DNA of 64,000 nt from positions 26,614-90,613 of the IMG/VR virus record IMGVR_UViG_3300045988_150395; one strand, 5' to 3'. Positions 7,448 through 12,820 of the stretch are shown here, piece by piece. Source of the stretch: a virus. The first letter of the stretch is position 1. Each line of letters opens with the position of its first letter. The position numbers and the translations under genes are program-made. The notes under the pieces were generated by a model that had not been told where the DNA came from, searched no databases, and saw only the letters and a program-made list of their open reading frames with translations.

Positions 7448-9829
7448 TCATACTTTTGTTATTGAACTAATATTACCATGCTTAATTAGCTGATTTCCAA
7501 TAGCATTTCTACCTTGTAGAGGAATATCCTTAGCAGAAATACAGATTGAATTTGGTACTCCTACTAAAAGAATAGAATCTTCATCAGAAATTAAACTTGC
7601 GCCAATAACCTCTCCAGATACATCTGTTGGTTTATAACAAATTAAGCCTTTTCCTGCTCGTTTTTGTCTAATAGCTTCTTTAAGAGAAACTTTCTTTCCA
7701 AGACCTTTCTCAGAAACAATAGCAATTTGGTCATCTTCATGACGGACCGGTAAAGCTGAAACAACCTCATCTCCATCTGCAAGATTAATACCTTTCATAC
7801 CCATCGTCGCACGAGAGCTAGAAGTAATCTCATTAGAAGCAAATCTAATCATCATACCTTTTTTGGTAATAAGAAGAATATCTTCATCCTTAATAAGATT
7901 TACAGAAGCTAAACTATCATCTTCCCGCAAATTGATTGCCGCCAGACCAGTTTTCTTTTTAGTCTTAATATATTCTTCAAGGCTTGTTTTCTTAACTATA
8001 CCATTCTTAGTTGCAAATAAAACATAATTTGCATCAGTATCTCTATAAATAGAATAAATGAGAGTTGGCTTTTCATCACTTTCCATTTCAATAAGAGATT
8101 GTAATGACTGACCTTTAGTAGTATTTGTTCCTACTGGAATATTATCAACTAAGATACGATACATTTTACCTTTATTTGTAAATACCATAAGAGAATCAAT
8201 AGTATTTGTGCGGATAACCGCAGACACGACATCATTTTCAGTCTTAATACCTTTACCGTTTCTTCTCTGTGTGCGGAAACTAGAACTTGGAATTCTCTTA
8301 ACAAGACCGCCCTCTGTCATAACCACAACACACTTTTCTGGTTCTACAAGCGCAATTTCTCTCTCTTTATTAGATAAATCAATTTGAGTCAATTCTGTCC
8401 TTCTAGCATCTCCAAACTTATCGACAATCTTTTTAAGTCTTGCTTTAAGCTCTTCTTTCTGGATAGATTCATCTGAGATTAATGCCTTTAAGTCTGAAAT
8501 GGTAGAAATAAGTTGTTTTTCTTCATTTTGAAGCTCTACTTTTTCAAGATTCGCTAAACTTGATAATCTCATTGCTAAAATAGCTTTAGACTGCTTTTCA
8601 GTAAATTTATATCTTTCAATTAAAGCATCTTTAGCTACTGCCGCACTAGCAGATTTTTTAATTAAAGCAATGATATTATCAATATCTTCTAATGCTTTTA
8701 AAAGACCTTCAACTATATGAAGTCTATCTTCAGCTTTCGCCAAATCAAACTTAGATTCTTTAATAATACACTTAATATTATGGTCAACATAAATCTTACA
8801 ACAATCTTTAAGATTTAATTCTGTTGGAGTTCTATCTACAAGCGCAATTTGATTATATGAAAAAGAATCTTGAAGTCTAGTTTTGGCAAAAAGCATTTTT
8901 ACAACTGCTTCTGGATTTACTTTTTTCTCGACTTCAATTACAAGCTGAACACCTTTCTTATCTCCTTCATTTCGTATATCAACAACACCAGTAATATCAC
9001 CTTTTTCACAAGCTACTCCAATTTCTTCCATAAGTTTCTCAATACGGGTTCCATATGGTACTTCTGTAAAAATAATATTTTGACCAGAAACATTATATTT
9101 ACCACGTACTTTTACACTTCCATGCCCAGTACGCATAATATTTGGAATATCATTTTTATTAATAATAATTCCGCCTGTTGGAAAATCTGGTCCAGGTAAC
9201 ATTGGCTCTTTACCGTCCATATAATCATAAATAGCATCTGCAACTTCTCTTAAATTATGAGGAGCCCAAGAACAACCCATTGCCCATCCAATTCCTTCAT
9301 TTGGATTACAAAGAAGATTTGGAAAAACCGCAGGTAAACTTACTGGCTCTTTTTCCGTTTCGTCATAATTTGGAATAAAATCAACATTTTCTTTTTTAAT
9401 TCCAGCTAAAAGACCTTCTTCAGCCAATTTAGTAAGACGAATCTCTGTATAACGCATTGCAGCAGCTCCATCACCGCCAATATTACCAAAGTTACCATGC
9501 CCATCAAAAATAGGATAGCGCATAACCCAAGGCTGAGTTAATCGTACCATTGCCCCATAAATAGAACTATCACCATGAGGATGATATTTTCCCATTGTGT
9601 CTCCAACAATACGAGCGCTTTTTCTATGCGGTTTACTAGAAGAGGTTCCAGTTTCCCACATATCATATACGCTACGTTTTGCTACTGGCTTAAAGCCATC
9701 TGCTGCATTTGGCAAGGCTCTATCTGTATTAACTGCCATACCATATTCAAGACTGTTTCGATATTGCTCATCTGTAATATCATTCGTTGTCCATAAATCA
9801 TTCTGCATTATACATTGCTTCCTTTCCAT
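7448..9829 (-). CDS. DNA topoisomerase II, DNA-cleavage (GyrA/ParC-like, T4 gp52-like) subunit
   Basis: 793 aa; HPHGD motif and catalytic-Tyr region AAMRYTEIRL. Confidence 0.9.
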   Translation of the reverse strand: MERKQCIMQNDLWTTNDITDEQYRNSLEYGMAVNTDRALPNAADGFKPVAKRSVYDMWETGTSSSKPHRKSARIVGDTMGKYHPHGDSSIYGAMVRLTQPWVMRYPIFDGHGNFGNIGGDGAAAMRYTEIRLTKLAEEGLLAGIKKENVDFIPNYDETEKEPVSLPAVFPNLLCNPNEGIGWAMGCSWAPHNLREVADAIYDYMDGKEPMLPGPDFPTGGIIINKNDIPNIMRTGHGSVKVRGKYNVSGQNIIFTEVPYGTRIEKLMEEIGVACEKGDITGVVDIRNEGDKKGVQLVIEVEKKVNPEAVVKMLFAKTRLQDSFSYNQIALVDRTPTELNLKDCCKIYVDHNIKCIIKESKFDLAKAEDRLHIVEGLLKALEDIDNIIALIKKSASAAVAKDALIERYKFTEKQSKAILAMRLSSLANLEKVELQNEEKQLISTISDLKALISDESIQKEELKARLKKIVDKFGDARRTELTQIDLSNKEREIALVEPEKCVVVMTEGGLVKRIPSSSFRTQRRNGKGIKTENDVVSAVIRTNTIDSLMVFTNKGKMYRILVDNIPVGTNTTKGQSLQSLIEMESDEKPTLIYSIYRDTDANYVLFATKNGIVKKTSLEEYIKTKKKTGLAAINLREDDSLASVNLIKDEDILLITKKGMMIRFASNEITSSSRATMGMKGINLADGDEVVSALPVRHEDDQIAIVSEKGLGKKVSLKEAIRQKRAGKGLICYKPTDVSGEVIGASLISDEDSILLVGVPNSICISAKDIPLQGRNAIGNQLIKHGNISSITKV

Positions 9830-10205
9830 ATGCTTTTAAAAACTGCTTACGATAATCAGCACTTGCACCCATCATCTGAATAAATGCTTTATTTGCGGCC
9901 TCTGCATCTCTTACAGTAATCTTATCTATTACACGACGGTCTGGGTCAGTAAGGCACTCTTCTGTTTCTTCAACACCCATCTCTCCAAGACCTTTCATAC
10001 GACCAACATCATATTTTTCAGATATATGTGTCGCACGATACTTTTCAAGTTCTGTATCATCCCTTAAATAAGTATAAGATTTACCATTTTTTTCAGTTAT
10101 CTTATATAACGGCGCACGTCCTGCATAAACATATCCTTGTATTAAAAGTTCTGGACACACATTCCAGATAAATGTATAAAATAAATTTTTAATATGAGCT
10201 CCATC
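9798..10205 (-). CDS. DNA topoisomerase II ATPase/toprim (GyrB-like) subunit, exon 2
   Basis: DGAHIKNLFYTF... then RMKGLGEMGVEE (GyrB QRYKGLGEM motif); the leading MGTTR codons are intron read-through. Confidence 0.8.
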   Translation of the reverse strand, partial: DGAHIKNLFYTFIWNVCPELLIQGYVYAGRAPLYKITEKNGKSYTYLRDDTELEKYRATHISEKYDVGRMKGLGEMGVEETEECLTDPDRRVIDKITVRDAEAANKAFIQMMGASADYRKQFLKAYGKEAMYNAE

Positions 10206-10254
10206 GCGTGTTGTTCCCATGTTTCCATCGGCACTGACTATCTCTTACTTAATT

Positions 10255-11084: not shown

Positions 11085-11299
11085 TTTAATTCTCCTTCAT
11101 TTTTATTTTGAAAGAGAACGAATAAATATTTGTTTCCCACGGGATTACCATATCTTGCTCAAGGACTTAGGATTCCCCGTTAGCAAAAATTTTTCTTTTT
11201 CATATTTATATGAGAGCCATATGGGTCACATAAATATGTTTTGACCAAAAATTTTTACCCGCTTGATTAAGCGAAAAGTCTTTCATACGCCGTATTACT

Positions 11300-12820
11300 G
11301 ACGTCCGCATCAGACATAATAATAATCTTACCATAACGTAATTTATTCATATCATATTCAATCTTATTATTTACTACACTCCAACCATTAGGTCCAAAAA
11401 AAGCATCCATAATAGTTGAAATCTCAGCATTTTTAATTACCTTATCTACTGCTGCATCCTGCGTATTTAACATCTTTCCACGAATTGGCATAACTGCCTG
11501 ATAACGTTTGTTTCGTGCATCCTTTAACATTCCAGAAGCAGAATCTCCCTCTGTAATATAGATTTCACATTTCATGCGGTCTGTTTTTTCTGAAGCATCT
11601 GCAAGTTTACTATCAAATTTTAATGCCTTACTTTTCTTTTCTGCTTTTGATCTTGCGGCTTCACGAGCTTTCTTTGCCGCGTTTCTAGCTCTTCGCGCAA
11701 GTAATGCTTTTTCAATGATTGTTTTTACATCCTTTGGATTTTCATTCATCCATTCAACAAAATTTACATTAATTGCTTCAAGAATAAGAGCCTTATCAAT
11801 GTCTGTTACACGTACTTTAGTCTGACTATCATATTTAACAGATTTTGCTTTTAAGTTAAATACAATAATCAATCCTTCATTTAATTCTGCGCCAGTTAAA
11901 TTTGTTTCATCTTTCTTATATAATTTATTGTCATTCGCATACTTATTTAATGCACGAGTTAAATTTGCTCTAAGGGTAGTAAGATGAATACCACTCTCTA
12001 CTTTACCATAATTGACATAACTTACAATATCTTCTGAATAGCCAGAAGTATAAGTCATACAAATATCAATTAAATCATTACCCTTAACTATATGGGCATT
12101 AAAACGTTTTTTAATAATTTCATCATCTTTAACTTTTTCATCCACAAGGTCGTTGATACCATTTTTAGAATGAAAATCTTCTTCTTTTCCATCAATAATC
12201 AATTTAATAGTTAAAGTTGGACTAAGAGCAGACTCTTCTTTAAATAATGTGCGGATATCATTCAAATTTGCTTCTGGATTTTGAAAGAATTGTGGGTCTG
12301 GGATATAGGTAACTTTAGTACCATGAACCCCAACTTTTTCTTTAGTAATTTCTCTTTTCTGGAATAAACCATCCTTATACCAAAGTGTTTCTCTTTGACC
12401 TTTACCATCAGATGTAGTAATCATTGAGCTGGACGAAAGGAAGCAAACAAGCTTCATTCCAATTCCGTTAAGTCCAAGCGCACTGCCACCATAAATAGAA
12501 TCATCAGAATCATCATATTTACCAGAAGTATTAATTACTGAAAAACATTCAGAAAGCATTGTTTCACCATCTGGTCTTTCTACTCCTGGAATAAAACCTT
12601 GTGCAAAATCTTCACAAGTATATTCATTCTTCTTTGTATCCACACTAATGATAATTTCAGTTCCATGACCGATAATATGCTCATCATGTGCATTTGCAAA
12701 CAGCTCTTTTAAAAGCTGTGTACTATATTCAGTAGAACCGCAATATGTACTAGGTCTTTTTCTTGTAAATTCTCTAGCATCAATATGTTGCGTACTATTC
12801 TCATTATACTTTTTTGACAT
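11300..12820 (-). CDS. DNA topoisomerase II ATPase/toprim (GyrB-like, T4 gp39-like) subunit, exon 1
   Basis: GHKL ATPase N-terminus, then toprim region ending ...KIIIMSDADV; the trailing SNTAYERLFA* is intron read-through. Confidence 0.85.

Follow-up and report, generated by a model that had tools for sequence, protein, structure and literature searches.

A 64,000-nt stretch of viral DNA (IMG/VR record IMGVR_UViG_3300045988_150395, positions 26,614 to 90,613), hereafter called the window, carries the coding sequence of a GyrB/ParE-like topoisomerase subunit in two open reading frames (ORFs) with a GIY-YIG endonuclease ORF between them, and we consider it very probable that this is one gene, split by a mobile group I intron of td-like type (subgroup IA). 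All features of the split gene lie on the minus strand. The boundaries of the insertion were read from an intron-less viral contig, L004, which is 99.8% identical to the window at the DNA level up to position 11301 and resumes at 10206/10205 (96.8%), with nothing between. Because this intron-less allele fixes them, the boundaries of the intron are exact, placing it at 10207..11300 (1094 nt, starting with CAGUAAU and ending with AACACG). An earlier sequence-only reading of this DNA had named alignment of the exon junction to uninterrupted relatives as a check, and its remark that exon 1 ends in U and the intron in G holds at the boundary set by L004, the two bases being 11301 and 10207.

The upstream ORF (12820..11267) encodes 517 aa and terminates in ...LRYGKIIIMSDADV (GKIIIMSDADV), followed by the read-through residues SNTAYERLFA and a stop codon. 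The downstream ORF (10220..9798, 140 aa) starts with MGTTR-DGAHIKNLFYTF... (MGTTRDGAHIKNLFYTF) and has RMKGLGEM inside; the sequence-only reading had described both ORFs in these terms, and the ORF list agrees. Exon 1 of the GyrB-like type IIA topoisomerase B subunit (11301..12820) comprises codons 1-507, ending ...IIIMSDADV, and its last base is the U of GACGU, while exon 2 (9798..10206) opens with C followed by GAU GGA GCU ..., that is (V)DGAHIKNLF..., and holds 135 codons and a stop. The insertion point is phase 2 of the Val codon (GU/C, the slash here and below marking the insertion), between DADV and DGAHI. When 11301 is joined to 10206 the frame is kept and the product is a 642-aa protein reading ...IIIMSDADVDGAHIKN...; a spliced message would carry ...GAUGCGGACGU from exon 1 joined to CGAUGGAGCU... 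from exon 2. This joined protein has more than 35 uninterrupted counterparts of the same length (642 aa), with 97-99% identity at 100% coverage. Agreement of this kind is far beyond chance and bears out the earlier claim that joining the ORFs restores the GyrB toprim sequence. The same search also returned a few 517-aa products, which are the exon-1 ORFs of intron-bearing alleles. Pfam assigned DNA_gyraseB (1.5e-31) and Toprim (3e-08) to the exon 1 ORF and DNA_gyraseB_C (2.3e-13) to the exon 2 ORF; in the uninterrupted homologues all three domains lie in one chain, while in the window they are spread across the two exons. No N-terminal ATPase domain of the GyrB-like protein was reported by Pfam at E<0.001.

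Furthermore, the intron-less contig L004 and four more intron-less loci (L128-L131) are syntenic with the window, with RNase H upstream and a GyrA-like gene downstream, and differ from it by exactly 1094 nt; lysozyme, RNase H, GyrB and GyrA neighbours are shared between L128-L131 and the window. The 1094-nt insertion was found at the identical base in L005 (IMG/VR) and L132 (Logan), and the 517-aa exon-1 product is also called in L133 (Logan) and L134 (ENA). The gene is intact in three independent intron-bearing assemblies. The three copies of the intron, in the window, in L005 and in L132, have 98.9-99.7% identity. The exons of L132, however, agree with the haplotype of L128, and that haplotype shares only 87.5% identity with the window over +/-120 nt. 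The three intron-bearing alleles have in common an allele-specific tract from about -7 to +30 (GCG GAC GU/C GAU GGA GCU CAU AUU AAA AAU UUA UUU), and in comparison with every intron-less allele this tract contains synonymous changes only. Since an intron which is about 99% identical sits in exon backgrounds about 12% apart and brings with it a shared, intron-specific flank, these alleles argue for homing with co-conversion, of which the tract from -7 to +30 is the footprint that would be expected.

Covariation and predicted fold of the intron

Assignment of the intervening RNA to group I rests on comparison with its relatives. A 27-nt pattern taken from its 3' region occurs in more than 119 viral contigs, including ORF-less members of about 300-400 nt. 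In a first set of 50 non-redundant ORF-deleted relatives, scored over 47 core pairs, 91.8% were paired, against 35-48% when the partner was slid by 1-3 columns and 79.5% in shuffles, and 33 of the 47 pairs had changes on both sides. In a second set, a tool-made alignment of the 3' halves of 35 relatives, 95.9% of cells were paired against 32-44% after sliding, with both sides changing at 19/30 pairs, and 0/500 shuffles reached the observed pairing, the both-side changes (counted as pairs or as cells) or the covariation score. A covariance model, R1, was built from these 35 sequences, none of which came from the window. It scored the 3' half of the window intron at 146.2 bits (E 7.7e-30), as high as any member of the family, and it also recognised the T4 td intron at the correct place (L135 1296-1383, P7 to P7') with 30.1 bits and an E value of 1.8e-4 on a rough calibration. 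Over the last 168 nt of the intron, which begin at the endonuclease stop codon (10374..10207), there is 75% identity to Enterococcus phage EF1. The matching EF1 segment is flanked on one side by an ORF resembling a homing endonuclease and on the other by the following DNA polymerase exon, and the match breaks off exactly where the intron ends. A td-like core with covariation, the R1 score, exact boundaries and an I-TevI-like endonuclease thus stand together behind the group I assignment first proposed in the sequence-only reading. An intein was excluded as a candidate, because stop codons close the exon frame inside the insertion (SNTAYERLFA and a stop) and Pfam gave no Hint or intein match.

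In the predicted fold, P1 (11287..11304) was read from the sequence: exon ACGU together with the first intron C (11304..11300) pairs with the guide GGCGU (11291..11287), which lies 10 nt downstream, so that the last U of exon 1 forms a wobble pair with G11290. The same arrangement is present in a second intron of the window (described below) and in L014, L017, L100 and L113. The 5' strand of P3, AGACU (11277..11281), has its partner GGUCU at 10273..10269, and one P3 position in the 50 relatives is U-A in 19, C-G in 14, A-U in five and G-C in two. Two hairpins (11182..11273) occupy the interval between the P3 5' strand and J3/4. Hairpin A (11273..11260, CGCUU-AAUC-AAGCG) has pairs that covary in the 50 relatives; hairpin B (11259..11182) is variable above a conserved GGU/GCU base and is self-complementary in every relative in spite of its differing sequence. 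Drawing P3 from the 3' strand of hairpin B, its standard position, was tried and rejected, as that strand has no complementarity to the P3' region in any relative and B is self-complementary in all of them. P4-P5-P4' (11139..11180) pairs ACGGGG (11180..11175) with UCCCGU (11144..11139); P4 is paired in 50/50 relatives, P5 covaries, and P5 carries CCUAAG...UAUGG, the sequence of the 11-nt GAAA-tetraloop receptor. The P6 5' strand GGG (11136..11138) pairs with CCU (10372..10370), with the endonuclease ORF looped out of P6; P6 is paired in 48-50/50 relatives, and a compensatory GGC/GCU is seen in L008 and others.

The 3' ribozyme core (10234..10373) comprises P6' (10372..10370), P7 (10364..10359 with 10241..10236, GACUAU with AUAGUC), P7.1 (10358..10336), P7.2, P3' (10273..10269) and P8 (10267..10248). 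P7.1 (5+3 bp) and P7.2 lie between P7 and P3', and both covary. P7.2 is enlarged to a three-way junction, with its base at 10331..10330 and 10280..10279, P7.2a at 10329..10311 and P7.2b at 10310..10288; four P7.2b pairs are formed in 50/50 sequences with up to five pair types each. P3 and P7 cross to form a pseudoknot, and both strands of each are supported by covariation. At the 3' end (10207..10231) the P9 hairpin CCGAUG-GAAA-CAUGGG (10231..10216; -7.3 kcal/mol, z -2.57 against shuffles) is followed by AACAACACG up to the terminal G at 10207, and relatives sharing this 3' end have a P9 with a GNRA loop. The GAAA loop of P9 may contact the receptor in P5. We keep this contact as a sequence-based suggestion because the co-occurrence counts across the family are not clean: both elements were found in five members, the receptor only in four, the loop only in 17 and neither in 24. 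It may also be noted that the invariant loop of hairpin A (AUCA, in the region 11182..11281) is complementary to UGAU in the invariant loop of P7.2a, although the pattern used to search for relatives itself fixed the loop sequence; a kissing contact between the two loops is possible.

The endonuclease, the proposed mechanism and its alternatives

The endonuclease gene within the intron (10374..11084, stop codon included) encodes 236 aa with the N-terminus MIGIYKITNKINNKIYIGQS, and it matched the GIY-YIG family (Pfam PF01541, E 6.9e-12) and PHROG 7168 'homing endonuclease' (1.4e-33). The earlier description of the intervening segment as about 1.09 kb with a GIY-YIG ORF was thus accurate. Its N-terminal 107 residues are 36% identical to the catalytic domain of I-TevI (E 4e-14), in an alignment spanning GIY, YIG, RR..H, RE..W and NGYN, that is, the conserved Tyr, Arg, Glu and Asn motifs, and the crystal sequences of that domain (PDB 1MK0/1LN0) matched the protein at 5e-11. 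Residues of about 95-230 form two similar repeats of about 55 aa, for which only weak PHROG 'HTH DNA binding' (helix-turn-helix) matches were noticed (1.8e-4), and in the alignment the C-terminal half showed no similarity to the C-terminus of I-TevI. Upstream of the gene a hairpin formed by GUUCUCUUUCA and UGAAGGAGAAU (11089..11119) buries its GGAG ribosome-binding site, 5 nt upstream of the AUG; it has a minimum free energy of -12.1 kcal/mol (z -3.18 against shuffles), and analogous hairpins precede the ORF in EF1 and in T4 td/I-TevI. By analogy with these, the hairpin would control translation of the endonuclease.

From these features we infer that the intron splices and that the endonuclease is active at a target site in the uninterrupted gene. 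In the mechanism which we favour, the gene would be transcribed through the intron and the RNA would fold into the P3-P9 core, with exon ACGU pairing to the internal guide and leaving a U-G wobble at the splice site. Free guanosine would then attack between 11301 and 11300, and the freed exon 1 would in turn attack after the terminal G 10207, giving a ligated message for the 642-aa enzyme, in which the toprim motif IMSDADVDGAHI would be whole. During mixed infection the GIY-YIG endonuclease, encoded in the P6 loop, would cut intron-less alleles, and repair off the intron-bearing genome would copy in the intron with a few tens of bases of flanking exon, which is homing.

Several observations weigh against this explanation. 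One is that the curated Rfam group I model RF00028, with which the sequence-only reading had proposed to test the intron, returned no more than 12.7-14 bits against a gathering score of 50 bits, so this check failed. The whole window gave tRNAs only, with no group I match, at the gathering threshold, and the intron alone gave no group I match at E<=10. When the halves were compared to RF00028 separately, the 5' half scored 14.0 bits and the 3' half had no match. Relatives behaved similarly: no match was found at the EF1 and Lak loci, none among nine ORF-less relatives at the gathering threshold, and L014 scored 12.7 bits. As a control we used the T4 td intron, its sequence confirmed by a 151/151 match, which reached 40.3 bits with RF00028. 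Because this proven intron also misses the threshold, RF00028 is insensitive for introns of this subgroup, and the Rfam negative is weak evidence. The 5' topology is also unlike td, with two hairpins after the P3 5' strand instead of a P2 before P3, and because of this difference ribozyme activity cannot simply be assumed from td. P1 is a helix of 5 bp whose folding energy (-5.2 kcal/mol, z -0.46) does not beat that of shuffles; because it is so short, we regard P1 as compatible with the fold rather than compelling. P10 would have at most 2 bp, against 7 bp in the second intron of the window, and was left out as evidence, and P9 contains one G-G mismatch. Finally, an in-frame AUG (10220) precedes exon 2, and because of it separate translation of exon 2 is formally possible.

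This last point leads to the alternative which survives best, namely that the intron no longer splices and the 517-aa and 140-aa polypeptides assemble in the manner of T4 gp39/gp60. Each of the two is a complete ORF that has its own start and stop codon, and T4 demonstrates that a split large subunit can work (bioRxiv 10.1101/2022.08.31.505936). We nevertheless judge this improbable. The ribozyme core is intact (146 bits), the AUG at 10220 lies inside P9 without a clear Shine-Dalgarno sequence, and the introns at the same site in L100, L113 and L017 give exon 2 no in-frame start. Such a break would part DADV from DG within one metal-binding motif, the conserved added tails of the T4-type split are absent, and the tail of 10 aa read past exon 1 is what the conserved P1-P2 RNA gives when translated. 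It is still harder to credit that a free-standing GIY-YIG gene was inserted and left the topoisomerase gene an inactivated pseudogene. Free-standing GIY-YIG genes are common in phages and Rfam finds no intron here, but the RNA on either side of the ORF (216 nt before it and 167 nt after it) is structured and conserved, and ORF-less introns have it too, among them the one at the same site in L014; the exons lack stops and frameshifts, every change in the flanks of intron-bearing alleles is synonymous, and the intactness of the gene in three independent assemblies speaks against decay. An assembly chimera could be suspected, as the window is probably a metagenomic assembly whose closest GenBank phage match is 45% identical, but because the insertion recurs at one base in independent assemblies (IMG/VR L005, Logan L132 and L133, ENA L134), we set such an artefact aside as having almost no likelihood.

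Other members of the family and the surrounding genes

The DADV/DG site is occupied by introns of the same family in GyrB homologues that are 34-50% identical (L014, without an ORF, and L017, L100 and L113), and further toprim sites of the family are EG/DSA (L008, L014), PVRG/K (L125; PxRG/K in general form) and the position after DADSDG (L083). The GyrB homologue of L014 (about 47-52% identical) has two ORF-less family introns, at L014 1361..1648 and ~1892..2265, which score 52.7 bits at EG/DSA and 143 bits at DADV/DG. The window itself holds a second intron of the family (2666..3877, minus strand, 1212 nt; flanks 4653..3878 and 2665..~2454), with its own 298-aa GIY-YIG endonuclease (3722..2826, minus strand), which splits a gene for a GIY-YIG-domain protein at ...YIGQAV/NIRERWRQH. 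R1 scored this intron at 133.3 bits (E 5e-27), and in its P1 the loop AAUAUUG is complementary to the 7 nt that open exon 2, so that a 7-bp P10 can form. A 283-aa gene of PHROG 6721 (1315..2166, minus strand) is intact in the window; in many related contigs (for instance L016, L047 and L049) it is interrupted by the same intron family, often ORF-less, at ...DITAPLYW/WKEFDTYKVG. In the Lak megaphage L002 (Prevotella phage Lak-B1) family members were found at 2987..3128 and 1008..1095 (108.8 and 30.5 bits), and its P7, GGUCAU/AUGACC against GACUAU/AUAGUC, differs by three compensatory pairs.

It is tempting to generalise from these members that the intron belongs to a widespread uncurated IA structural subclass in gut/Firmicutes phages (more than 119 viral contigs, Lak megaphages and EF1), with displaced hairpins, a P7.2 three-way junction with two invariant loops and no detection by Rfam, which has colonised at least four toprim positions (EG/DSA, PxRG/K, DADV/DG and after DADSDG). 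We regard this generalisation as doubtful in its full extent. If true, the toprim metal-binding motifs would be a shared hotspot that is repaired by RNA splicing, ribosome hopping or subunit splitting in different phages, and one of the colonised positions would be the exact position of the T4 gene 60 coding gap. Nearer to hand are consequences for annotation. Gene callers give three genes at this locus, a truncated GyrB, an endonuclease and a GyrB C-terminal fragment, where on the explanation favoured here there would be one spliced topoisomerase gene and a homing endonuclease, and Rfam-based pipelines can be expected to miss this intron family altogether. Natural pairs of intron-plus and intron-minus alleles with a visible co-conversion tract would also offer a ready system for the study of homing and intron competition in uncultured gut phages.

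Around the split gene the following was noticed. The downstream gene (9829..7448, minus strand), which has the Pfam domain DNA_topoisoIV, encodes the GyrA/ParC-like subunit; its start is overlapped by the end of the GyrB-like gene (window 9798..9829, minus strand), which suggests translational coupling of the two subunits. For this GyrA-like gene the longest ORF begins at 9829, while the 786-aa product called in related loci begins about 20 nt further downstream. The GyrB gene is itself mosaic. Over the first ~1250 nt compared, L006, L007 and L008 agree with the window in 92-97% of their DNA; at window ~11651 (minus strand) this agreement falls off sharply, and the C-terminal part is about 42% identical in protein, suggesting a recombination breakpoint just upstream of the toprim region. 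The best GenBank phage match to the C-terminal part was 45% identical and uninterrupted, and no close relative was found in that database. Elsewhere in the window there is a tRNA array (36673..54862) with 25 Rfam tRNA matches, all on the minus strand; the match at 48963..49100 is 138 nt long and was not called by ARAGORN, and may be an interrupted or aberrant tRNA gene.

Comparison with known systems

The case is a clear textbook example of a well-known selfish element and leaves the known mechanism of such elements unchanged. Group I introns in essential genes of gut phages are already well documented: in the gut jumbo (Jug) phages many group I introns and stand-alone GIY-YIG/HNH genes split replication and packaging genes, with some of the splicing confirmed by metatranscriptomes (PMC12880540). 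The elements of the Jug phages, however, hit terL, nrdD and DNA polymerase in phages of 360-402 kb for which topoisomerase is listed as an intact core gene (PMC12880540), whereas the relatives of the window are on contigs of about 177-181 kb. In the library that was searched, no paper describes a phage gyrB or topoisomerase II gene with a group I intron, which is not proof of absence, and a 2014 review of bacterial group I introns leaves gyrB/topoisomerase genes unmentioned.

The T4 td intron is an experimentally proven member of subgroup IA2 (T4 td / Twort type) which carries the GIY-YIG endonuclease I-TevI. As in td, the intron sits at a conserved motif of a phage gene for DNA metabolism, its ORF occupies the loop of P6 behind a hairpin that covers the ribosome-binding site, and P7.1 and P7.2 lie between P7 and P3', which is a feature of IA2. 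Strings shared by the two introns are AACGGGGAA / AAUCCCGUG (P4), CGACUAU / AUAGUC (P7), GGAGUAGGG and CGAAAY. On the other hand, the host gene is a GyrB-like topoisomerase here and thymidylate synthase in T4, and the C-terminal half of the endonuclease shows no similarity to that of I-TevI. The window intron has no P2 between P1 and P3, the P3 5' strand following the guide after AUGAA, and two hairpins part this strand from the UAA before P4, whereas in td P3 abuts UAAA-CGGGG. In its P7.2, a three-way junction, two loops are conserved (UAUUGAUAC and UUUUAGGUAACGAAG in the window, family consensus UUUUAGGAAACGAAG), and its P9 is a single hairpin capped by GAAA, with P9.1 and P9.2 both absent. 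On its predicted fold the intron therefore has the P7.1 and P7.2 that characterise IA2 and departs from the standard P1-P2-P3 order. This architecture of P3, hairpins A/B and P7.2 is common to the DNA polymerase III alpha intron of Enterococcus phages EF1/EF5, to which the 3' 168 nt have the 75% identity given above. In EF1/EF5 and the more than 119 uncultured viral contigs the introns interrupt different genes (among them those for DNA polymerase, a helicase-like protein and PHROG 6721); the endonucleases in this family differ or are absent, and some members lack P9.

The gene 39/mobA/gene 60 cassette of T4 is similar in that the same protein and the same toprim motif are interrupted, and a homing endonuclease drives this cassette too. 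MobA insertions are reported to fall always within the toprim domain, with residue D45 of gp60 being part of its motif (bioRxiv 10.1101/2022.08.31.505936). T4 gp60 reads ...IMTDADHDG, followed by the annotated 50-nt bypass region and then LGSIYPSLLGFF... (LGSIY...), and because ...IMTDADHDG precedes the gap, the T4 coding gap lies two codons downstream of the window intron and at the position of the L083 intron. The sequence-only reading had stated that T4 splits this protein at a different place. This is right for the gp39/gp60 ORF break, which divides the T4 protein into two chains about 45 codons upstream, but not for the 50-nt gap, which falls in the same toprim motif. The two systems differ in that MobA is an HNH endonuclease and the one here is GIY-YIG, and in that the T4 gap is handled by ribosome hopping and not by RNA splicing (bioRxiv 10.1101/2022.08.31.505936), whereas the gap in the window is 1094 nt of structured RNA and the protein has no added tails in comparison with uninterrupted homologues. 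With this intron the type IIA topoisomerase toprim motif would join the conserved sites which are targeted by homing endonucleases, only two codons away from the T4 gene 60 gap.

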